Source: a virus
Virus genome (UHGV): UHGV-0138819
Strand: one strand, 5' to 3'
Length of the DNA stretch: 14,223 bases
Under the pieces are notes generated by a model. It had not been told where the DNA came from, did not search any database, and saw nothing but the letters and a program-made list of their open reading frames with translations. The translations under genes and the position numbers were made by a program. Of this stretch, positions 188 to 13,681 are shown piece after piece. Numbering within the stretch: the stretch's first letter is position 1; every line of letters begins with the position of its first letter.

Positions 188-258
188 GACTCGGGGTGCC
201 CTTCTGCGTGAAGGCTGAGAAATACCCGTATCACCTGATCTGGATAATGCCAGCGTAG
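188..258 (+). repeat. attL: native 5' portion of the thiM TPP riboswitch aptamer; left copy of the 71-bp imperfect direct repeat
   Basis: 188-258 equals 13557-13627 except at 206, 207 and 232. The left copy carries the bases I recall for the canonical E. coli thi-box (CUUCUGCGUGAAGG, GUAUCACC). Homology ends abruptly after 258. Confidence 0.8.
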
Positions 259-319: not shown

Positions 320-1702
320 ATGTTGTCACTCAGAGAGACAAACAAAATGGCACACACACCGATCAATCACACCATCATCCGTAACGGGATCTACTACGTC
401 AGCTTTCGCCTGTCGGGTCATAAATATTTCCGTCGGTCGTTAGAGACAGATAGCCACAGCCACGCGCAACTCTTGATGTCATTTGCATCTCCAGCCATTC
501 CATTAGTCAAACGTGGAACCATTCACCCGGATCAGTTTGGTCAACGTCTTTCTGATTTCAGCAACCGCTTAAAGCAACAGAATGAACACTGGCTGGTTCA
601 ACAATTTCTCAGTGATGAACGGCGCAATCTTCAGCCGATAGTTGTTCAGGAATACCGGGAGACTGTTACACCTTCAGAAGATGAGGAAGAACAAACTGAA
701 GCACAGTCAAAGGATGTGTTAACACTGGCTGGCGCTTGGAATATGTACAAAAAGGAGAAAGCCCAAAACTGGACGAAGGCAATTTCACAGGCCAATGAGC
801 GCTTTATGGAAGTCATGTTCATTGTCCTCGGTGCATCAACAGACGTAACGACGATAACCAAGCAGGACATCAAGCAGGTGATGGAAGTTGTTGAAAACTT
901 ACCAAAGCGTGTTGTACAGCCTTATCGGTCGATGACGGTTCAGCAACTGATCGAGTGTGATGATGTGCCACCTGAAGATTTGGTTGGCGCTGAGTCTATC
1001 CACAAGCATTTGAAGATTTACAAATCGCTCTTCAAAACCTTCCTGACTGATAATAAAGATATTCTGGAGAAGTCTCCGACAGATGGAGTAGTCGCCGCAC
1101 CGTCAAAAGCGAGGTTTGGTGCATACAGTGCGGCAGAAATGAGAAAGTTTGTGGGGTGGGCGCTCAAGCAGCCTGATGGCTGGCAGAAATGGATCACCTT
1201 GTTGTTGGCGTATACGGGAGCCAGAAGAGGGGAGATCGCCAAGCTGGAGAAATCACAGATCAAATTTGATGAAGATAGCCAGCGGCACTATCTCCTGATA
1301 GCGGAAGGAGGGCAGGGGAAAACCGAGAATGCTACAAGGCAGGTGGCTATCCATCCCAAACTGATCGAGTGGGGTTTTCTTGATTTTGTAAACCGCCAAT
1401 GGAAAGAGAAAATCTTCTCGCCTGTGTCAGGTAAGAACATGCCAAAAATCGGCAAAGTCTTGGCTGATGTCCGTGATCAGCTTGGTATTCCGTACCTTGA
1501 TGATTATGGGCAGCGGCGATTAGTGCATAGTTTCCGGCATACCATGATTTCAACCTGTTTAGCTGGTTGGGTTGGGAACTTAGCGCACTTGCAACAGGTG
1601 GTTGGGCACGAGAAAAGCGGGTCAGGGATCACTCGGCGCTATCTTCATACGTTCCCGCTTTCCACTGTTTGTTATGTGATTGATGGCTTGGGTTGGTTGT
1701 AG
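320..1702 (+). CDS. int: Tyrosine site-specific integrase
   Basis: 460-aa ORF. C-terminal catalytic motifs are visible: TGARRGE (Arg), HSFRHT (His-x-x-Arg), VGHE, RRYLH (Tyr nucleophile). Alternative start at ATG 347 with a purine-rich AGAGAG upstream. Confidence 0.85.
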   Translation: MLSLRETNKMAHTPINHTIIRNGIYYVSFRLSGHKYFRRSLETDSHSHAQLLMSFASPAIPLVKRGTIHPDQFGQRLSDFSNRLKQQNEHWLVQQFLSDERRNLQPIVVQEYRETVTPSEDEEEQTEAQSKDVLTLAGAWNMYKKEKAQNWTKAISQANERFMEVMFIVLGASTDVTTITKQDIKQVMEVVENLPKRVVQPYRSMTVQQLIECDDVPPEDLVGAESIHKHLKIYKSLFKTFLTDNKDILEKSPTDGVVAAPSKARFGAYSAAEMRKFVGWALKQPDGWQKWITLLLAYTGARRGEIAKLEKSQIKFDEDSQRHYLLIAEGGQGKTENATRQVAIHPKLIEWGFLDFVNRQWKEKIFSPVSGKNMPKIGKVLADVRDQLGIPYLDDYGQRRLVHSFRHTMISTCLAGWVGNLAHLQQVVGHEKSGSGITRRYLHTFPLSTVCYVIDGLGWL

Positions 1703-2927: not shown

Positions 2928-3692
2928 ATGGAGGCTGTTTTGAAAAAGATTCTTGCATTACCTCTTATGTTCTTTTCCTTCTCGTCCTTCTCTGAAGGCG
3001 TTTCGTCTACAGATGTACAACCATACCCTGAGTACCTGGCGGCCTATGTAAAAACGTTGATTGCTGCTGGATGTGAAGAAACATTGAAAGGCGGTTCTGA
3101 GGACGTATTGATCAAACGGGCAACGGAGGGAATGAAGAAGGGCACGACGGGTTACGATAATGTACACAATGCTATCGTGTTGGGGGCTGGTTTCGGTAAT
3201 GGACTGAAGGAAAAAGGAAAACTTATCACAAAAGAAAAAATCGCGATTGATAGTTGTGGTGGTGCAGCGGCCTATACCATGATGCAAAAAGAATTTATAA
3301 AAACGGTCGTTGCTAGTATGACTAATCCGGAACAATCGCAGGTTGCCGATAGTAAACCCAAAGTGCCAGCTTCTGATGATGCAATTTACCGTACAAAAGC
3401 ACTAGCTCTGGCTGAACTTTATAAAGCTAACGAGGTTGCAGCCGATGACAAAATTGGTGGTCGTAAGGTGGAAGTAACCGGAACTGTACAGGACATAACA
3501 AAAAATTTCACGGATGATGTAGTTCTTAAACTTGAAAGCGGTAATCGCTTCATGCCAGTCAGTCTGAGTATGTCTGATTCAGAAAAGGCGAAAGCGTCGA
3601 AATTGGAAAAGGGCCAGAAGATCACCGTGACTTGCGAAAAGATGCAGTTTTTCATCGGTGCACCGTCTGGCGGAAACTGCACCTTTAACTAA
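2928..3692 (+). CDS. Hypothetical secreted protein (~255 aa) with signal peptide and a possible OB-fold-like C-terminal domain
   Basis: Long ORF ending TAA 3690-3692. N-terminus MEAVLKKILALPLMFFSFSSFSEG looks like a signal peptide. Start ambiguous: ATG 2886, 2898, 2928, or TTG 2940 preceded by GGAGG at 2930-2934. The OB-fold resemblance is my guess. Confidence 0.6.
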   Translation: MEAVLKKILALPLMFFSFSSFSEGVSSTDVQPYPEYLAAYVKTLIAAGCEETLKGGSEDVLIKRATEGMKKGTTGYDNVHNAIVLGAGFGNGLKEKGKLITKEKIAIDSCGGAAAYTMMQKEFIKTVVASMTNPEQSQVADSKPKVPASDDAIYRTKALALAELYKANEVAADDKIGGRKVEVTGTVQDITKNFTDDVVLKLESGNRFMPVSLSMSDSEKAKASKLEKGQKITVTCEKMQFFIGAPSGGNCTFN

Positions 3693-3706
3693 TCTGTCAT
3701 ACGGTC

Positions 3707-3727
3707 TGCCGGGTAAAATTCCCGGCA
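3707..3727 (+). other. Hairpin just downstream of the cargo CDS (7-bp stem TGCCGGG/CCCGGCA, 7-nt loop), no U-tract
   Basis: Inverted repeat seen directly. Not followed by a T-run, so terminator function is uncertain. Confidence 0.3.
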
Positions 3728-4986
3728 ACTCATCTACCCCACCTCATGGATGTCCCTGCTATTTGACGATCCAGCTTACATGCTCTTGCTGAAAATATCT
3801 TACGGCTCTCTGGGCCAGGTGCCTGACGTGACAGACGATCCCTCAATAATTTCTTATCTTCTTGCTGAAATATCGCAGAGCCGACAGGCCCAGTAACGTA
3901 TTTCACCACTTCATCCCGTAGAGCATCACAGCAGGGAAAACTTGCCGCAATAGGGCATTCTACTGTTCGTTTTCTGGTCTATTTAACATAATGGTTCTTA
4001 TAAGTACTTGACTGGAATGGTCAGGTATTACTTTTCGGAACGTTGACGCGAAGCTGGGTACACAACAGCGATTTCACCAACAGAAGGAAAGCATTCAGGA
4101 GGATTCGAGGTGAGTTCTCTTGTTCAAGGATTTTGGATGAGTTTGCCTGGTCACCACACAATTTCAGGTTTCAGACCTTTGAGGCTGCCAGTGTGTCAAA
4201 CGCCATAAAAGCACTTTTTTCTGTTTACCAGCAGACACAAAGCCACTACACCGACGTTACCACAACGGGCTGAAGGTCTGCCATCACCTGGTGATATTCA
4301 CGAGCCTGACCGCCACTGTTTCGTACCATTTCCCAAAACAATGTAAACAGCCAACCCACCAATCCCTTCTACGCTCCACCAGAAGCGCTACAGTGCGTTA
4401 TCCCCCCAGATGTAAACTGACGTACCGATAATCCACGACATCCCACAGCGCGATACAGGAACCACCAGAGGACATCTGTTTTAGTTTTAATGTGTCTTTT
4501 TTATTTTTTGTAAAAAGATGGTTCAGAAAGTGGGTTGTGTTTAGCACCCATTCAATTGGCGGATTCGCCTAGGCCGCGCCATTACTGGCTTCGCTGCATG
4601 CACCACACCATAACGCCCATAGGTACAAACTTGTGATTTGTACGTTTAGTGACCACTTTAGCATGATTAACTACGGATTATAGGCTATTTGAGGTGTATT
4701 TAATCTACTTTGTTCGCAGGATAGCCAATGATAAAGATCATCCACCAAATTTTCACAGAAAACTAGTATAGGGTTGCCAATCTTCAGCCAGCGCGGAGAA
4801 TGGTCGGTATTTTCAGATGAAAGCGGGGGAGGGAGATGATCAATTCTCGGAGCGGATCAGGTGCCTGGACCGCCTCAGGTGTTGCCGTCGATTGTGCCAT
4901 TGAAGCATGACGCGGACATATCAAACCAGAAGTTTTCATCGGTACGTTGGTCGCTTGGATGACTTGGAAAATTCTCACCCGGTGAT

Positions 4987-5075
4987 ACCTGCACGATTTT
5001 CGTGTACCCACCCCCTCGATTTTCGAGCACCTACCTGCACGATTTTCGAGTAGGGGGTAGTCGATTTTCGAGCAC
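4987..5075. repeat. Iteron-like array: four CGATTTTCG-centred repeats at 22-23 bp spacing, followed by an AT-rich tract; candidate replication origin or protein-binding array
   Basis: CGATTTTCG at 4994, 5017, 5040 and 5062. ACCTGCACGATTTTCG is exact at 4987-5002 and 5033-5048. CGATTTTCGAGCAC is exact at 5017-5030 and 5062-5075. AATAATAATAAATAACAAT follows at 5076-5094. Confidence 0.55.
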
Positions 5076-5649
5076 AATAATAATAAATAACAATCTCCAT
5101 AAAAGAACTGATAAGAAAAGTACCTCCAGGTCGAGAGCACGGAATGACGGTTGGTCATTCTGTTAGTTTTAATAGTGATGCTTCTGCATCGCTCCGCTCT
5201 GCAATGGCTGGTCAGCCACTTCAGATATGTTTGTGGTAAGAAGCTCACCTTTGCTGACGTGAAACAGCCGCGCCATCTCGTGACCTTCTAACCCTCGTTA
5301 ACACATCGCTACGCTCTGTGACTCGGGTAACCCGACAGGCTACGCCAGAGAGCTACGCTCTCACTCTGTGTGGAAGCTGCGAACTTGTTCGCCATATGTG
5401 GATCGGAGCACGGCGGAGAGGACTGCTTTGCATCTGTCCGGTTCACTCCGGGGCGGCGCGGGTTGTCTAACTGACTTCCTCAGCGCCTCTCTACGGCGTT
5501 TAAATGGTGTGGGTAACACGATGGTACTGCTATAACGACGAGTCCCCGCAGAACGCGTCACAGAACGATCTAGCACTATTGACAAAGATTTTTTAAACTT
5601 GTAATGTTATGGTGATTATTATGCATTATAAAATGCTACATGATAATGA

Positions 5650-5678
5650 TTGCTATTTACAAACAAATCTGATACAAT
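5650..5678 (+). promoter_or_regulatory. Candidate sigma70 promoter for the 5824-10406 operon (TTGCTA, 17-bp spacer, TACAAT)
   Basis: -35 TTGCTA at 5650-5655 and -10 TACAAT at 5673-5678 in an AT-rich region about 145 bp upstream of the first operon ATG. Confidence 0.4.
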
Positions 5679-5823
5679 AGATTTTAGTAGGGTAATGATT
5701 TACCTACGAATCCTCGAATAATTCTGCCGTCATCACGACATTCCTTGTCAACCTCACGGCAATACAAAATGGGTTACAAATAGAACCTCCGCGAATAATT
5801 CTTTTAACAGAACGGAGAACCCA

Positions 5824-6270
5824 ATGAATAAACCAAAATCCCAACGTCTCGACCTGACCACTATGACAGGCGAGCAGATCGCTGATCTCATCCTGAACGG
5901 CAAATACACCAAATCAGCTTTGTGGGCCTTCATTAGTAGAAACGGCGGGGCAGACGCTGTACATGCTCGACTTCCTCAGATCGCCGTCTGCCTGCAAATC
6001 CTGAAGCAGGCGCGGAAGAAAGCGAAGCAGGCACGAGTGGTTAAGACGGTGCTGAAGCCTCTGAGCAATAAATATGCTGAGGGTAATTCCTTAACGCAAA
6101 TCCTGAATCCTGTGTTACAGGGCTACCGCGAGCTATATAGAGAAAAACTGAATCTGGACCTGACACCAGAACAGGTGATCTTGCTCTTGATCGCCACTGA
6201 TGGTGTGGAACGTCTGGAATCCTACGGTTACACCTGTGCGGGTGACTTCCCGACCGCAACCGCAGTCTAA
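5824..6270 (+). CDS. Hypothetical protein (148 aa), first gene of the rightward operon
   Basis: GGAGA 8 nt upstream of the ATG. No family recognised. Confidence 0.6.
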   Translation: MNKPKSQRLDLTTMTGEQIADLILNGKYTKSALWAFISRNGGADAVHARLPQIAVCLQILKQARKKAKQARVVKTVLKPLSNKYAEGNSLTQILNPVLQGYRELYREKLNLDLTPEQVILLLIATDGVERLESYGYTCAGDFPTATAV

Positions 6271-6357: not shown

Positions 6358-6561
6358 ATGAACATCAAATTTCAACAGCACGTTTATCAGGCTCTACTAG
6401 CTGAGGCCAAAAGGCAGGACAAGCCCCTGGCACGGCTCTGTAATGAAATCTTGGAGACTGCCGCGAACATTTTCGACAACACACCAGACATCAAACCAGC
6501 ATTAGCCAGCAAGGCGACACTTTACGGAGAACAGAATGAGCAAACAGAACCGGGACAGTAA
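6358..6561 (+). CDS. Small putative ribbon-helix-helix (Arc/MetJ/CopG-like) DNA-binding protein (67 aa)
   Basis: AGGAGGA upstream of the ATG. N-terminal strand-like MNIKFQQ followed by two predicted helices (QALLAEAKRQ, PLARLCNEILETA). RHH assignment is by pattern only. Confidence 0.55.
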   Translation: MNIKFQQHVYQALLAEAKRQDKPLARLCNEILETAANIFDNTPDIKPALASKATLYGEQNEQTEPGQ

Positions 6562-7282
6562 GGATTTTGTAAAACTTGAATACAGCATTCTCGACCTTAC
6601 CGAGTACAACGGCCTGACCATTAATGGCAACATGAAAATTTTGCTATCTCTGGTTTACAGCTATGACAAAACAGGCAGAACTTATTACGAGTCTGTTGGC
6701 ATGATTGGTAAACGTTGCGGCTGCAAGCCCGAAGCCGTTCGTAATTTCAGGAACAAGCTTCGTGAAGCGGGAATGATCACTTTTGAGGAAGAGCAGGGGA
6801 GAACACACAAAATTTCTCCGGTCGAACTCGATCCATCGTTGATGGTTTTTCTTGACGATCATAATTCCACGCAGGTGAGTAATAGAAAAGTGGAAACCGA
6901 GGAGAGCGGTAAGAATGAGCAGAAACGTGATGTGGAATCTTTCGTGGTGGAACCTGCCGCGCCTGTTGCTGGAAAACCAGACGGCCTACCTGTTGTGGAT
7001 ATTCCTGTCGATGCTGATGTACCTGCCAATGATGATGCGGTGAACGCTTCTGATAGGTATACCGATGAACAATTAGGCACCAAGCTGAGGCGATGGCGCA
7101 ATTGGGGACTGGATGAAGAAGCAAAAGCGTTTTGTCTCTCTCATGGTATCAGCAGCGATGAGGACAGCATGAATCTGTTTATTCAAAATTATCATGTACC
7201 CGCACCGGAGTCAGTAGAACAACAGGTTAACGCCCCAGCAGATGAGCTGCCGCTTGATTATGATGACTCGATCCCTTTCTGA
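6536..7282 (+). CDS. Hypothetical protein (248 aa) with a putative winged-helix DNA-binding segment and acidic C-terminal region; candidate replication initiator or regulator
   Basis: GGAGA 5 nt upstream of the ATG. Overlaps the previous ORF by 26 nt. Segment YESVGMIGKRCGCKPEAVRNFRNKLREAGMI resembles wH/HTH domains. C-terminal half is D/E-rich. Confidence 0.55.
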   Translation: MSKQNRDSKDFVKLEYSILDLTEYNGLTINGNMKILLSLVYSYDKTGRTYYESVGMIGKRCGCKPEAVRNFRNKLREAGMITFEEEQGRTHKISPVELDPSLMVFLDDHNSTQVSNRKVETEESGKNEQKRDVESFVVEPAAPVAGKPDGLPVVDIPVDADVPANDDAVNASDRYTDEQLGTKLRRWRNWGLDEEAKAFCLSHGISSDEDSMNLFIQNYHVPAPESVEQQVNAPADELPLDYDDSIPF

Positions 7283-7836: not shown

Positions 7837-8265
7837 TTGACCCTATTTGAATATTTATCCTTTCTGCCGTTAGCGGTAGCTGTTCTCCAATGGCTTCGTG
7901 ACGGCCTGGACCTCTACAGGAAACATAACAATATGAATAACATTGAAGCAATCCGCGCCAGTATCCGGGAAGCAATGACCGCAGGAACAGACGAACCGGA
8001 AGATCTGAACAAATCCGCTGAAGAAGCATTGGCGGAGGCGGTGCAGAGTTACCTGTCCGCTTCGACTGCAACAGCCAGCGAGCCAGCCCCAAAAAGTGGT
8101 AAAACCATCAAGGAAAAAGGGATCGCTCTGTGCCACCAAGCCCAAGGTTATAGCGCTAATCTGCGTCCGGTAAGTCTCATGATGAAGGCAAGTCTTGATG
8201 AGCTAACACCTGAACAACGCGCCGCGCTTGAGCGTCTGGGTTACGATATCAATCAGGGGGTGTGA
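7837..8265 (+). CDS. Hypothetical protein (142 aa from TTG 7837, or 111 aa from ATG 7933)
   Basis: TTG 7837 preceded by GGGGA. In-frame ATG at 7933 preceded by AGGAAA. Its stop TGA (8263-8265) overlaps the next ATG (8265-8267). Confidence 0.5.
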   Translation: MTLFEYLSFLPLAVAVLQWLRDGLDLYRKHNNMNNIEAIRASIREAMTAGTDEPEDLNKSAEEALAEAVQSYLSASTATASEPAPKSGKTIKEKGIALCHQAQGYSANLRPVSLMMKASLDELTPEQRAALERLGYDINQGV

Positions 8266-10406
8266 TGTCTGGCACAAATAAGATTGTTACCAGCACCGTT
8301 AATGAAATCTCGTGGATCACAGACGATGCCTCATATCAAAAAGCCAAAAAGAAGATTATCTCGCTTAAGGCTGCTCATGAGAAACCAGCTAAAGCGCTTG
8401 AGAAGGCCCAGAAGCGGACCGTCCAGAGTGAAGGCAAAGCAGCACTAGCCGCAGCGAAAGCCCAGACAGCGAAGCTACGCCAGGCTGAACAATTGTCAAA
8501 ACAGCAACAGAAACAAGCTCAGATACAAGCCAAAATGGAACGGGATGCAGTCTCCCACGCTAATAAAATGACCTCATTACAGGCGCGTCAGTTATCCCAG
8601 CAGGAACAGGCCGCACGGCAGAATGCCAGACTAGCAGCGATATCTGACAAGGTGAGACAGGCGAGTCGCTCCCGTGCAATGACCTACAATCCCAACATGC
8701 CTGGAGTTCACTCCGATCCATCTCTGGTGGCACGTCAAAATGCAGCGATGAACCGTGGTCACGGCGCTGTTGCTGCTGACATCGCAGCCACCAAAAAGGC
8801 GATGGCCTTGGAGGAGAAGCGTCAGCGTGAGAAAGAGGCAGGCCTTAAGCGCGAGGTGACTTATTACAACAGTTTGCGCCGTAGCGCTCTGACTCTGGCA
8901 AACGTGAACGGCGCTGACGTTGCAACCCGGTACAAAGCCATCAGTGCAGCAAAAGAGGCACTTAAAGCCCAGAAAGAAGAGCGCTATACGGTTGAAGAGA
9001 CCCGCTTCGAAATGGCTCGTATCACCACCGAATTACGCAAGCAGGCTCGTCTGCAACAGCGTATGACCCGTGAGCAGAAAGCCGCAGGTGTTCGTGCTGG
9101 TCGTGTACGCACAGAAAGCCGTGGTGGTAGAGCTGGTCTTGCAGCTGCTGGTGTTATTGGTGGTGCGTCGTTAGTGGGTAGTATGGGCGTTTCTCGTGTC
9201 GGTCAGACCCTCCAGGGAAGCCTTGAGCGCTCTCGCGATGTGAAAAAACTCCAGCAGTACGGGATCAGCAACCTTGAGTTCGCTGCACTTCAGGATCTCT
9301 CGATGAGCCGTGTTGGTTACTCACTGAGTGCTGACAAGCTGGCTGACCTCAACAAGGACACAACCGAAAAGGCCGGGGAATTGTTAAACACCGGCTCTTT
9401 CAAACGTAACAAGAAAACTGGACAGGTGAATTTCAGCGGCGGTGGCGAGTTCGCAGATATCATCAACAATGTGCTGACCTCCACCAACGGTAACCAGAAG
9501 GTAGCACAGAAGGTGATCGGAGAACTGCAAAAGCTGGATTTTCCGACCTTCATCACTTACCTGAAACAGTTGCAGAAAACTTTCAAATGGACGGACAACC
9601 AGACCCGGCACCTGGCTGAGGCTGTGAATGATGGTTCGGTCTTCCTCGAAGTGTTCAATGATGAGGGGCAGGGACTTATCCAGCGTATGCATCAACTCTC
9701 TTCTGAAGGATGGACCCTATCTGATGCGCAGCAAGCCAACCTCGATAAACTGGCGGCGTTAGGTGCTGAGTACAACCGAGTGCAAACCAGCCTTGCAGAT
9801 CATTTCTCAGCCTCGTTTGTTGAAGGCCTGGGGCAGTACGCTGCCAATACTGAAACTCTACGTCAGAAGATGACTGGACTGATCCCAATTTCCGATGCCC
9901 TCGGCGTTGCCCTTGGTGAGCTAACCACCAACATTCTCTCCTTCTCTGGTCGAGTCGGTGAAGAACTTAAGAAAGGCGCGACATTGCCGGATGCGGTGTA
10001 TACGAGCGTGGTAGATGAATCTGCAAACGGTGCTGCCGATTGGATTAAGGAAAAGACAGGCTTTGATCCACGTAGCATCGGTCAGACGCTTAAGCAGATT
10101 TACCCGTGGCTGGATAGTTCAGCACCGAGCAATATTGGCTCAGGCACGGCGTATAACGATCCAGCGCTAGCGTTGAATGTTCCTAGCCTGAACTATCTGA
10201 CACCCCAGCAACCGACGTTTACGGTTCCGACAATTGACAGCATGACGCTGCGACAGCCGATTCCTGTCAGTGTTACCGGGCAAGCGAACATTAATCAGCA
10301 GATGGATGTGTTTGTCCATGACGATAAGATCGCAGGGCTGGTTGATACCAAGATAAGGGAGAACAACCACGCGCAGAATAACCTCATCCTTGGGATTGCA
10401 GACTAA
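8265..10406 (+). CDS. Large hypothetical protein (~713 aa): Ala/Lys/Gln-rich coiled-coil N-terminal ~300 aa, Gly-rich hydrophobic segment, unrecognised C-terminal region
   Basis: Uninterrupted 2.1 kb ORF with start overlapping the upstream stop (TGATG). Hydrophobic GLAAAGVIGGASLVGSMGV mid-protein. No Walker A, no relaxase HxH motif, no primase zinc-finger pattern seen. Confidence 0.7.
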   Translation: MSGTNKIVTSTVNEISWITDDASYQKAKKKIISLKAAHEKPAKALEKAQKRTVQSEGKAALAAAKAQTAKLRQAEQLSKQQQKQAQIQAKMERDAVSHANKMTSLQARQLSQQEQAARQNARLAAISDKVRQASRSRAMTYNPNMPGVHSDPSLVARQNAAMNRGHGAVAADIAATKKAMALEEKRQREKEAGLKREVTYYNSLRRSALTLANVNGADVATRYKAISAAKEALKAQKEERYTVEETRFEMARITTELRKQARLQQRMTREQKAAGVRAGRVRTESRGGRAGLAAAGVIGGASLVGSMGVSRVGQTLQGSLERSRDVKKLQQYGISNLEFAALQDLSMSRVGYSLSADKLADLNKDTTEKAGELLNTGSFKRNKKTGQVNFSGGGEFADIINNVLTSTNGNQKVAQKVIGELQKLDFPTFITYLKQLQKTFKWTDNQTRHLAEAVNDGSVFLEVFNDEGQGLIQRMHQLSSEGWTLSDAQQANLDKLAALGAEYNRVQTSLADHFSASFVEGLGQYAANTETLRQKMTGLIPISDALGVALGELTTNILSFSGRVGEELKKGATLPDAVYTSVVDESANGAADWIKEKTGFDPRSIGQTLKQIYPWLDSSAPSNIGSGTAYNDPALALNVPSLNYLTPQQPTFTVPTIDSMTLRQPIPVSVTGQANINQQMDVFVHDDKIAGLVDTKIRENNHAQNNLILGIAD

Positions 10407-10440
10407 AATCATCGTTCCGTCGAAAATGGCGCAGCAAATT

Positions 10441-10460
10441 GGCCCACACGAGAGAGGGCC
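10441..10460 (+). terminator. Weak terminator-like hairpin after the 714-aa gene
   Basis: GGCCC (10441-10445) pairs with GGGCC (10456-10460) around a 10-nt loop, followed by a T-rich stretch (GTTATTGTTTTTGTTGTTG). Confidence 0.25.
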
Positions 10461-10490
10461 GTTGAATTCGCCATGTTATTGTTTTTGTTG

Positions 10491-10520
10491 TTGCAAATGA
10501 TAATCATTCGTGTTAAAATA
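10491..10520 (+). promoter_or_regulatory. Fur-box-like palindrome (AATGAT-A-ATCATT) overlapping a candidate sigma70 promoter (TTGCAA, 18-bp spacer, TAAAAT)
   Basis: Perfect 6-1-6 inverted repeat at 10495-10507 inside 10493-10511, about 14/19 match to the Fur consensus GATAATGATAATCATTATC as I recall it. -35 TTGCAA 10491-10496, -10 TAAAAT 10515-10520. Confidence 0.35.
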
Positions 10521-10926
10521 ATATACAAGGTGAATTACAACAGCCAAATGTTTTCCCTTCTCCTTAGGAATCAAAGTGCGCTTTTCCCAGAGCGCCTTTT
10601 CTCATACAGCCAATATTCGCACCCTCTCACGGTAAGGTTAGGCCATTGCCGCTGGCTGTATCAGAAAAGATTTTCTCCGACCTTGGATCGGGGATTTGCC
10701 AAAGCCTTTCATCCTCGGAAGGCCGTCTTGCCAGACGAAAACTGGCATTGAGTGCGGCAGCGAAGATATGAGGTCTCCCGCTGCTGTGCTCCCTCATTCC
10801 TGAAGCGTGACCCGCCGATCATGCTTTCCAAATCTCTCCATCAGAAAATACCATCGTGAAGCTATTAGCAACGCATGTTGCTAACCCGTAAACGGGTGAA
10901 TTTCATCATCTCCGATGATCTACCAA

Positions 10927-10962
10927 CCGGGGCAGGCGTTTTCCTGCCTCCGGCTCTTTTTC
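10927..10962 (+). terminator. Terminator-like hairpin (CCGGGGCAGG / CCTGCC-T-CCGG) followed by CTCTTTTTCT
   Basis: About 10-bp GC-rich stem with one bulge, T-rich tract a few nt downstream. Confidence 0.4.
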
Positions 10963-10984
10963 TGTTGGGAATACAAATAAAAGA

Positions 10985-11010
10985 ATGCCGTCCGATGGAC
11001 GGTATTTTTT
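10985..11010. terminator. Rho-independent terminator, probably bidirectional
   Basis: Stem ATGCCGTCC / GGACGGTAT with loop GAT, then TTTTT on the plus strand. The plus-strand AAATAAAAG just upstream gives a U-rich tract on the minus strand. Confidence 0.6.
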
Positions 11011-11049
11011 CAACACAACCCGGCATATTCGCCGGATTATAAAAATTGC

Positions 11050-11412
11050 ATGGAGATACAACAAAATATGGCATTCGAACATGAAAGCAAAACCCCACAG
11101 GATGTATTGGTTTATACCGATAGCCCGATCTTTCATAAGCGCACCGTGATCTTTGATCTGGCTGCTGATGTGACTTGTGGTGATGTGATTAACCCGACCA
11201 CTGGCGCGGCATACGTTGCAGCCGATGCTGATAACTGTGCTGTAGCTCTGCAAAATCAAATCGCTGGTGATGCCCGTAGCCTGGTCATTTCAGACCGTGG
11301 CTGTGTGTTCAATCCATCTGGTCTGGTTGTAGCGGCTGCTGCAAAAGATGCTGCTTACGCTGCCCTTGTTAAGCAAGGCAACCGCATTGCTGACGCAAAC
11401 ACTGCAATCTAA
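11050..11412 (+). CDS. Putative phage head decoration-like protein (120 aa, or 114 aa from ATG 11068)
   Basis: Small Ala/Gly/Val/Asp-rich protein immediately upstream of a ~340-aa capsid-like ORF, the lambda D-E arrangement. Product call is inference from size, composition and gene order. GGAGA at 11052-11056 fits the 11068 start. Confidence 0.5.
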   Translation: MEIQQNMAFEHESKTPQDVLVYTDSPIFHKRTVIFDLAADVTCGDVINPTTGAAYVAADADNCAVALQNQIAGDARSLVISDRGCVFNPSGLVVAAAAKDAAYAALVKQGNRIADANTAI

Positions 11413-13435: not shown

Positions 13436-13556
13436 CCTGTCACACATAGACCAAAAGGGCCGCTTTTACCGTTTACAAGACTTCCCGCTGGCATTACTAT
13501 CCTGATCAGGGATTAATGAGGAGCATTAATCGCAAGCTTTTGATTTTATAGTACAT

Positions 13557-13627
13557 GACTCGGGGTGCCCTTCTTTGTGAAGGCTGAGAAATACCCGTAT
13601 TACCTGATCTGGATAATGCCAGCGTAG
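13557..13627 (+). repeat. attR: element-derived riboswitch-like 5' arm plus shared core; right copy of the 71-bp direct repeat
   Basis: Differs from 188-258 at three positions (TT for GC at 13575-13576, T for C at 13601). Canonical host sequence resumes after 13627 (GGAAGTCACGG...). Confidence 0.8.
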
Positions 13628-13681
13628 GGAAGTCACGGACCACCAGGTCATTGCTTCTTCACGTTATGGCAGGAGCAAACT
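13557..13681 (+). promoter_or_regulatory. TPP (thi-box) riboswitch in the thiM 5' leader, hybrid of element-derived 5' aptamer half and host 3' half plus expression platform
   Basis: GGGGTGCCCTTCT..GTGAAGGCTGAGAAATACCCGTAT.ACCTGATCTGGATAATGCCAGCGTAGGGAAGTCACGGACCACCAGGTCATTGCTTCTTCACGTTATGGCAGGAGCAAACTATG matches the E. coli thiM riboswitch as I recall it, apart from three substitutions in the 5' half. Confidence 0.85.

Follow-up and report, generated by a model that had tools for sequence, protein, structure and literature searches.

How a small mobile element that encodes capsid proteins, and no recognisable replication enzyme, might replicate its own DNA is the question raised by the locus analysed here. 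The window, by which we mean the whole stretch of 14,223 bp that was analysed (virus genome UHGV-0138819), is 100% identical to the rcnR-thiM interval of the E. coli AREA_C483 chromosome and carries an integrated element of ~13.4 kb, the ends of which are 71-bp repeats that form part of the thiM thiamin pyrophosphate (TPP) riboswitch aptamer. From the left, the element consists of an integrase gene, a few small cargo genes, a stretch at ~3700-5820 with no annotated gene (2.1 kb, 16% of the element) and then one rightward operon encoding in order proteins of 148, 67, 248, 173 and 142 aa and a 714-aa tape-measure-like protein; a decoration protein similar to lambda D and a major capsid protein similar to lambda E are encoded after these. 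Domain scans with Pfam, PHROGs, NCBIfam and PADLOC, in which most of the open reading frames (ORFs) of at least 65 aa were covered, revealed no helicase, primase, polymerase or AAA+ domain, so an earlier remark that no primase or helicase is recognisable was borne out. Since the element lacks these enzymes, the remaining replisome should come from the host or a helper phage. A repeat array lies in the gene-free stretch, and it is proposed from sequence comparison that the region 4986-5232 is quite probably a replication origin, with the 248-aa protein as its putative initiator. The features that carry this proposal are as follows.

4986-5076, plus strand: iteron array of four direct 22-23-bp units with the semi-palindromic core (T/A)CGATTTTCG(A/T)G, defined from the sequence, shuffles and relatives
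5077-5122, no strand: AT-rich tract, candidate DNA-unwinding element, the least stable 46-bp duplex in the window
4881-4985, no strand: conserved left flank of the candidate origin and left border of the exchangeable repeat cassette, from comparison with loci L003 and L014
5128-5163, no strand: AGGTCRA box (5128-5134) and perfect palindrome GAATGAC-GGTTG-GTCATTC (5142-5160, 7-bp stem), conserved in relatives
5174-5232, no strand: block common to all repeat types, AGTGATGCTTCTGCATCGCTCCGCTCTGCAATGGCTGGTCAGCCACTTCAGATATG, from a 13-locus alignment in which ATGGCT and the adjoining columns are invariant or nearly so
6536-7282, plus strand: putative initiator of 248 aa, from Pfam HTH_36, PHROGs families, AlphaFold2 and co-variation

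The four units occupy 4986-5008, 5009-5031, 5032-5053 and 5054-5076, with cores starting at 4994, 5017, 5040 and 5062 (spacing 23/23/22), and Tandem Repeats Finder gave a period of 23. The exact 9-mer CGATTTTCG occurs four times in the 14,223 bp, always within 4994-5070, against an expectation of 0.14; four or more copies appeared in 0 of 200 dinucleotide-preserving shuffles, and the further matches found when one mismatch was allowed are scattered at chance level. The 17-bp sequence TACCTGCACGATTTTCG is exact in units 1 and 3 (4986-5002 and 5032-5048), as is the 15-bp sequence TCGATTTTCGAGCAC in units 2 and 4 (5016-5030 and 5061-5075). A preliminary description of this DNA had recorded four core-centred repeats at 22-23 bp spacing followed by AT-rich sequence, and both observations hold, the latter as AATAATAATAAATAACAAT at 5076-5094; the alternating A-B-A-B pattern that it reported is real, but its exact duplications of 14-16 bp are slightly short of the 17 and 15 bp measured here. 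Missing from that description is the short dyad TCGA-TTT-TCGA that every unit forms. A 154-aa minus-strand ORF (4784-5248) runs across the array; it has no homologues, and it was rejected as a gene because it has no family match, is not annotated by the Prokaryotic Genome Annotation Pipeline (PGAP) and is interrupted in L014.

The tract adjoining the array on its right is 80% A+T and has a nearest-neighbour free energy of -47.6 kcal/mol, compared with a window mean of -62.6 (sd 4.4). The corresponding tract was unstable in the 15 loci tested (z = 2.2-3.6), and the AT tracts of many relatives contain two to four copies of AATAAGATC, which includes the Dam site GATC; the window has none. To the left of the array, the flank is 96% identical to that of L003 up to window position 5006, beyond which the L003 array differs, and the flank 4881-4985 also precedes the array of L014, which is of another repeat type (F, below). 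To the right of the AT tract, the AGGTCRA box is present in all but three of the 20 loci compared. In 10 of 15 loci, a perfect palindrome with arms of 6-8 bp begins at an offset of exactly 13 nt, counted from the start of the box; in two more the offset is 12-14 nt, and L003 has the palindrome without the box. Five palindrome variants, with both arms altered together, were observed (GAATGAC, TTGAAC, GTGAAC, ATAGAC and GATGAC). The palindrome was considered as a second specificity site and rejected in that role because, on inspection, its variants follow neither the repeat types nor the 148-aa or 67-aa protein; it may be a hairpin for loading or priming. The box, palindrome and block (5128-5232) are common to all specificity types and probably serve a shared factor, for example as a loading or priming site.

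The 20 comparable loci, designated by L numbers, were drawn from E. coli genomes, Enterobacterales, one Logan contig and IMG/VR viral contigs; the Enterobacterales loci were found via the capsid protein, using one genome per species (Enterobacter, Pseudocitrobacter, Citrobacter, Rahnella, Biostraticola, Buttiauxella and others). These relatives are mosaic elements with differing integration sites and integrases. In 20 of 20 loci, three to five direct semi-palindromic repeats are followed by an AT-rich tract of ~45-90 bp in non-coding DNA upstream of the operon, with ~650-1050 bp between the array and the first operon gene. The repeats themselves fall into ten unrelated sequences.

Type A: CGATTTTCG
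Type B: AAAGTTTGTACATG
Type C: CATCGGTAAYG
Type D: GGTGTCTTC
Type E: CCACTGAAGAAAGGTAAG
Type F: TAAGGTCGCCAGACGACC
Type G: AAACCATGTCCAGAAACTG
Type H: GGTAGGGACAACATAGTGTCC
Type I: TTAAAAGTCTTT
Type J: GGGGTATACCWGTTATAACAG

Dyads are recognisable in the repeats of relatives as well (ACAAA-G-TTTGT, GTAAC-G-GTTAC, CCACTGAA-GAAAG-TTCAGTGG and GGTCG-CCAGA-CGACC). The window's array is identical in L019 and L040 and differs by one base in L002. The preliminary description read the array and the tract beside it as iterons plus an unwinding element, and had named the absence of repeats from related functional elements as an observation that would speak against this; the retention of the layout in 20 relatives with ten repeat sequences supports the reading, and arrays are present in all 20 loci and in a plasmid-form sister family described below.

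The pairing of the repeats with a protein could be addressed by comparing two groupings of the 20 loci. One was based on 7-mers repeated within each array; for the other, loci were joined when the proteins in the 248-aa slot were 50% or more identical in their first 100 residues. (Words repeated within an array were used; a criterion of any shared 8-mer joined L041 to L014/L016 through a spacer word.) The two groupings are the same, with ten types each and 190 of 190 locus pairs concordant, and full concordance was reached in 0 of 100,000 permutations of the labels. Where the repeat is the same, the N-terminal 100 residues are 72-100% identical, apart from L007 and L015 (~70% identical), which have one directly shared repeated 7-mer and are linked via L010 and L013. 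Among the 15 loci compared initially, all pairs with different arrays were at most 31% identical. A linkage control was provided by the gene that lies between the array and the initiator gene.

5824-6270, plus strand: first gene of the operon, encoding a 148-aa protein

Despite this position, the groups of the 148-aa gene cut across the repeat types, and those of the C-terminal 90 residues of the putative initiator do likewise. L006, for example, encodes a 148-aa protein 88% identical to that of the window and yet has a type-C array, and L005 combines the C-terminus of L002 with the array (type D) and the N-terminus of L012. From the perfect co-variation and the discordant linkage controls it is therefore concluded that the N-terminal domain of the 248-aa protein is the part that would recognise the repeats; binding itself we infer from this comparison. 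The repeat cassette and the N-terminal domain appear to be exchanged together between elements as a specificity module. An apparent border of such an exchanged cassette is marked in L003, where one intact type-A unit and an apparent type-H remnant lie just left of the resident type-B array. Foreign-unit remnants are seen to the left of resident arrays in three loci (L003, 9087-9135; L014, 3160-3190; L015, 5320-5360), and they resemble scars left when cassettes were exchanged, the break-points being at the array's left border.

The 248-aa protein comprises a winged helix at residues ~22-95 (nt 6599-6820), an acidic, proline-rich conserved linker, a helical domain at 177-218 and a tail. In the AlphaFold2 model, residues 22-95 have the H-b-H-H-b-b winged-helix topology, the linker is disordered, the helical domain has a predicted local distance difference test (pLDDT) score above 80 and the tail is again disordered. 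Members of the family match HTH_36 or DUF6945 in Pfam, or else RepL, DnaD_N or Phage_rep_O weakly; among 13 members, DnaD_N was matched by one (E 0.046) and Phage_rep_O by one (E 0.077), RepA_N (PF06970) was matched by none at E up to 1, and no Pfam match to plasmid Rep families (Rep_3/RepA/RepE/pi type) was found, in keeping with a model that contains a single winged helix. When ten proteins were compared with PHROGs, the functionally labelled matches of nine were to replication-initiation, O-like or DnaD-like families (best E 3.2e-9), the sole labelled exception being a weak match of the L007 tail to an SSB family; none of the ten matched terminase or repressor families. The O-like matches are weak: the window protein gave E 2.8e-4 to 3.2e-3, and among relatives the values reach down to 5e-7. 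A profile built from the N-terminal domains matched PDB entry 4ro3, a 'hypothetical protein', with E 8.7e-11, followed by regulators. The winged-helix-like 248-aa protein had been suggested as the initiator, and the co-variation, the predicted fold and the matches to initiator families lend support to that suggestion. The other candidate, a helper-encoded factor, need not be invoked for repeat recognition; the steps after recognition would still call for a replisome of the host or of a helper.

The same repeat core was also encountered beyond these relatives. IMG/VR viral contigs were scanned for two CGATTTTCG cores 14 nt apart, and the scan returned the element itself together with unrelated contigs containing three to six copies at ~23-bp spacing. 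In four of the four unrelated contigs examined, the array lies inside or at most 80 nt from a gene of the same initiator families: within the gene for a DnaD-like replication protein in L021 and L028, as in lambda; 76 nt upstream of a winged-helix initiator gene in L031, where two DnaA boxes and an (AAATT)n tract come after the array; and 50 nt downstream of a winged-helix initiator gene in L039. No BLAST-level homologue of the window's N-terminal domain was found near the arrays of these other contigs, so the link is at the level of family profiles only. Arrays of CGATTTTCG with varied palindromic extensions were observed in L021, L022/L024, L026-L028, L031, L036, L037 and L039, and GGGGGTA/TACCCCC spacers are common to the window and L022/L024. 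These arrays, beside or inside initiator genes where examined, suggest that CGATTTTCG is a widespread iteron core read by distant members of one initiator superfamily.

A sister family was detected via the capsid protein (25% identity) in five E. coli plasmid records, including L046 (NZ_CP035869.1), L047 (NZ_CP043822.1) and three more. Four of these records are non-mobilizable circular plasmids with sizes of 13.2-13.7 kb. In the remaining one, 39.6 kb long, the unit is present in at least two tandem copies (its length makes three probable); it comes from strain RM10740, the chromosome of which also holds a 91%-identical relative of the window's element. The sister family has tape-measure, neck and baseplate-like genes and no integrase. 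Plasmid pE275a_13 (13.7 kb), which has neither an integrase nor a recognisable replication gene, contains five semi-palindromic repeats of 23 bp and, after them, an AT tract, all within a non-coding gap of 2.2 kb, and its winged-helix protein matches the same initiator families as the 248-aa protein. The existence of free circular plasmids with an array and an AT tract implies that such a layout can belong to an autonomous replicon.

We propose that 4986-5232 would act as the vegetative origin of the ~13.4-kb integrative, capsid-encoding element, its four semi-palindromic repeats being bound by the N-terminal winged helix of the element's own 248-aa protein, as the pairing by comparison suggests. 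Once a promoter at ~5579 is switched on, the 248-aa protein would be made and would oligomerise on the array, which would strain and open the adjoining AT tract (5077-5122); a host or helper helicase and primase would then be recruited, and replication of the excised circle would start. Initiator is the best reading of the 248-aa protein in view of its family matches, the neighbourhood of the unwinding tract, the recurrence of the core and the plasmid-form relatives.

Several observations weigh against this proposal. Binding, unwinding and replication are all steps that we infer. The mean pLDDT of the AlphaFold2 model is 54, a low confidence, and Foldseek returned generic winged-helix regulators of the MarR/ArsR type; because of these generic matches and the low-confidence model, the fold cannot tell an initiator from a transcription factor. 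The HTH_36 match of the 248-aa protein (E 1.4e-4 to 4.6e-4) is under the gathering score, its best PHROGs match (E 5.6e-6) is only a weak likeness to known initiators, and L016 has no PHROGs match. Unlike in lambda O, 1.46 kb separate the array from the initiator gene downstream of it, and the operon promoter lies in between. No DnaA box (TTATCCACA, up to one mismatch) was found in 4700-5300, and neither an IHF (integration host factor) consensus nor a Dam GATC site was found in or beside the window's array; DnaA boxes are common in iteron-containing theta-type origins, though not universal. L011 has two repeat copies only. The plasmid-form family is distant, and it bears on the layout as that of an autonomous replicon, not on the replication of this element. 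For the tail of the 248-aa protein, discussed next, the matches are short, with marginal E-values of 0.02-0.46 because the motif is short, and ~60% of homologues have other C-termini.

The C-terminal tail of the 248-aa protein, APADELPLDYDDSIPF (nt 7232-7279), resembles the C-terminal tip of E. coli SSB (the protein that binds single-stranded DNA), APSNEPPMDFDDDIPF. The two proteins end in ...LPLDYDDSIPF and ...PPMDFDDDIPF, respectively, so that DYDDSIPF in the former corresponds to DFDDDIPF in the latter. When the last 31 residues were compared with 177,635 PDB sequences, the only matches were to SSB, and the tail of L007 matched SSB and SSB-tagged myosin constructs among PDB sequences. An SSB C-terminal motif is recognised by an acidic stretch and a terminal I-P-F on a disordered tail, and the window protein has all of these (tail pLDDT below 50, i.e. 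predicted disordered). The ending -PF occurs in 40 of the 102 representative homologues, and -IPF in 30, behind several unrelated C-terminal domains. Recurrent alternative endings are GGIIV, GGLNCVNT, AAVALM, TTCDFL/TTCDLLYDL and ALENL, which may dock on other partners. In the literature searched, nothing specific was found on an SSB C-terminal motif in initiators or on DUF6945.

The SSB C-terminal tip is the docking peptide for PriA, PriC, DnaG primase, the clamp-loader chi subunit and others. We hypothesize that docking through the tail could offer a protein without a loader a route to bring the replisome to the origin. The acidic flexible tail might imitate the host SSB tip, and several such tails gathered at an opened origin might recruit helicase-loading and priming factors. 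It is tentatively suggested that the 248-aa protein is a minimal initiator in which SSB-tip mimicry takes the place of a helicase loader, in an undescribed replicon lineage with interchangeable cassettes. Iteron-bound DYDDSIPF tips would then recruit PriA/PriC (for DnaB loading), DnaG and chi without DnaA or an element-encoded loader; the lineage would consist of ~13-kb capsid-encoding replicons in integrated and plasmid form, with at least ten interchangeable iteron/winged-helix cassettes, the diversification of which might perhaps be driven by incompatibility or by origin-targeting nucleases, as for PLE and Odn.

Host replisome capture is not the only way in which a bound origin could be put to use. 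It is possible, if unlikely, that the 248-aa protein binds the origin and that firing depends on the replication proteins of a helper phage, the SSB-like tail being irrelevant or otherwise used. Such dependence would suit an element without helicase, primase or polymerase and with a satellite-like gene set, in which capsid and decoration proteins are encoded and no terminase or portal was found, and it has a precedent in PLE, the RepA of which also lacks helicase and primase and the replication of which needs the helper phage ICP1 (PMC7145576). The sister family, however, persists in ordinary genome assemblies in the form of free 13-kb circles, and its plasmid records show no sign of a helper; the SSB-like tail is a host-type motif; and no helper was identified, the initiator and the origin DNA being unmatched in 50,697 phage records.

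That the array is an operator and the 248-aa protein a winged-helix transcription factor, with replication located elsewhere or absent, appears improbable. The MarR/ArsR-type regulators are the nearest structural matches, the co-variation proves a protein-DNA pairing and not its role, and Rep proteins that bind iterons commonly regulate transcription as well. However, no sequence resembling a promoter occurs less than ~190 bp from the array, and the operon promoter follows only after 500 bp.

5579-5607, plus strand: probable operon promoter (TTGACA, 17 nt, TAATGT), read from the sequence, with TTGACAAAG conserved in relatives

The -35 hexamer of this promoter is perfect, but the promoter is absent from the list produced by a consensus scan because its -10 hexamer matches at three of six positions only. 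An operator would also leave aside that the array always adjoins an exceptionally unstable AT tract, often with clusters of Dam sites, that the labelled PHROGs matches are to replication initiators bar the one weak SSB-tail match, with no repressors, and that the same core lies in or beside initiator genes of unrelated viral contigs, once with DnaA boxes. The plasmid-form relatives, moreover, must have an origin, and the array is the sole candidate seen there.

A packaging site (pac or cosB-like), with the 248-aa protein as a small-terminase-like factor for the capture of helper capsids, would be consistent with the presence of capsid genes without a recognisable terminase; repeated sites are what small terminase subunits bind, and their N-terminal domains are of the (winged) helix-turn-helix kind. 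We consider this very improbable, as no member of the family matches terminase families, the labelled matches being to initiators apart from the weak SSB-tail one, and it is not obvious what an unwinding tract or an SSB-like tail would contribute to packaging. Arm-type sites of an integrase or excisionase and plasmid-style partition centromeres are likewise short direct-repeat arrays, but either role is scarcely credible here, given an array 4.7 kb from attL and 8.5 kb from attR, identical arrays beside different integrases and sites, and no ParA-/ParM-type ATPase encoded by the window in the domain scans.

The remaining features of the element bear on its life style, and those with assigned positions are as follows.

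188-258, plus strand: attL, which duplicates the 5' part of the TPP riboswitch aptamer (71 bp, three mismatches to 13557-13627)
13557-13627, plus strand: attR, within the intact TPP riboswitch (13551-13647) before thiM (Rfam RF00059, 73.6 bits; alignment with the left end)
320-1702, plus strand: tyrosine integrase (Pfam Phage_integrase, E 9.4e-7; PGAP annotation)
6358-6561, plus strand: 67-aa protein overlapping the start of the initiator gene (ORF list and PGAP), with no family match

A TPP riboswitch is annotated by PGAP at each end of the element (NZ_CP123310). The insertion point is inside the aptamer, the intact riboswitch staying on the thiM side, and sites with the IHF consensus adjoin both att repeats (282-294 and 13533-13545). 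Relatives use tRNA-Gly or tRNA-Thr as integration sites, with other integrases; identical or nearly identical arrays are found at thiM (window), tRNA-Gly (L002) and a tRNA gene (L019). No tRNA was found in the window. Many homologues of the 248-aa protein come from Logan/ENA contigs with a total length of 13.0-13.8 kb, the size of one element. These lengths may merely reflect assembly breaks at the attachment repeat; alternatively, the element may be excised or be present in more copies. Logan contig L019 (13,003 bp), which comprises a whole element, was considered as a circular form and gives no evidence of circularity because its ends do not overlap and it stops in the 3' end of a tRNA.

The element looks like a phage satellite, with capsid and decoration proteins and no terminase or portal recognised in the domain scans. 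Neither a helper phage nor a cos site was identified for it; the origin DNA and the 248-aa protein have no match in 72,556 plasmid records either, and its capsid protein has ~24% identity at most to phages in the collection. The 714-aa tape-measure-like protein (8262-10406), assigned by PHROGs tape-measure families, is the sole tail gene product seen in the element; a 731-aa homologue has a precomputed Pfam TMP_3 match. Between its gene and the head genes is a non-coding gap of 640 bp (10407-11049), which could be a packaging site; the region 10400-11060 had no match among the 50,697 phage records. In the operon, the 173-aa and 142-aa proteins showed no match to any helicase-loader family in the domain scans. 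The 67-aa protein is kept in most relatives, as at least four sequence types, and, judged by eye, it may be of the ribbon-helix-helix type (two helices after a short strand at the N-terminus), similar to plasmid copy-number regulators.

Two further segments of the gene-free stretch are conserved, and Rfam searches of 3600-5900 at gathering and permissive thresholds revealed no known RNA family. Of 5,426 complete E. coli genomes, 38 have the sub-block 3981-4545 conserved, and in 22 of the 38 this block is all that matches, at ~84% identity; its first 200 nt are near-identical across the three variants compared, its substitutions show no codon periodicity (34/25/36) and indels of 1-2 nt are present. 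The sub-block may encode a non-coding RNA or have a regulatory role. The interval from the candidate origin to the promoter (5165-5578, ~400 nt) is G+C-rich, mosaic yet conserved, and non-coding, with several hairpins; RNAalifold showed nine pairs changed on both sides, with folding z of -1.8 on the plus strand and -2.6 on the minus strand. A structured RNA is one possibility for this segment; it could also belong to the origin or to the control of the origin.

The proposed origin and initiator would provide a precise and testable pair for small capsid-encoding elements that are widespread in Enterobacterales. The ten matched repeat/protein pairs form a natural data set on the evolution of DNA specificity in winged helices and could serve as orthogonal replicon parts. 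SSB-tail mimicry, if true, would be a new and very economical capture of the host replisome by a mobile element, and would explain how plasmids persist without a helicase, primase or loader.

In kind, 4986-5232 resembles an ordinary iteron plus unwinding-element origin, from an apparently undescribed replicon family. It shares with the iteron plasmids (pPS10, F, P1, R6K, RK2 and pSC101) the three to five direct repeats at ~22-23 bp with an AT tract beside them, an element-encoded cognate winged-helix protein as putative initiator and a reliance on host helicase, primase and polymerase. The Dam GATC clusters in the AT tracts of many relatives are a further likeness, such clusters being present in the AT tracts of P1 oriR and of oriC (review PMC4980987). 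In contrast to the two-winged-helix Rep fold, the 248-aa protein has one winged helix and a disordered linker, with no plasmid Rep match in Pfam and only weak RepL/DnaD_N matches; the window contains no DnaA box, a promoter and two genes separate the origin from the rep gene, and the element is integrative with capsid genes. The integrative satellites PICI/SaPI (phage-inducible chromosomal islands, Staphylococcus aureus pathogenicity islands) and P4 likewise have their own repeat origin flanking an AT-rich region. SaPI Rep is a helicase with a separate primase, and P4 alpha is a primase-helicase fusion (PMC7145576), whereas no helicase or primase domain was found in the scanned ORFs here. In the literature searched, nothing specific was found on a satellite family of this description.

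Lambda ori/O also has four dyad-symmetric iterons adjoining an AT-rich tract, and an N-terminal DNA-binding domain with a C-terminal recruitment domain, and it is to O-like profiles that the 248-aa protein and its relatives have weak matches. In lambdoid phages, the N-terminal domain of O and the iterons change together (PMC7466680). The lambda ori, however, is inside the O gene, whereas the array here is non-coding and 1.46 kb upstream, and no P-like loader gene was recognised in the element, an SSB-like tail replacing the P-binding C-terminus. PLE RepA/ori, from a Vibrio cholerae satellite, combines an initiator without helicase or primase with semi-palindromic iterons around an A/T run in a non-coding region of a satellite-type element, and the TCGA-TTT-TCGA units of the window have the same arrangement. 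PLE variants have exchanged initiator/origin modules with matched specificity (PMC7145576, PMC8263062). Unlike RepA, the 248-aa protein belongs with DUF6945/HTH_36 and has no RepA_N match; and PLE depends on ICP1 for replication (PMC7145576), whereas the host-type SSB tail and the free plasmid relatives point towards the host replisome here. The putative initiator and origin are placed outside the two-winged-helix Rep, lambda O, RepA_N and SaPI/P4 groups because a defining feature of each was sought and found lacking. Unusual traits are the SSB-like tail, an origin apart from and upstream of the initiator gene, and ten interchangeable specificity cassettes. Functionally, the closest systems are lambda ori/O and PLE RepA/ori, including the exchange of matched initiator/origin modules.

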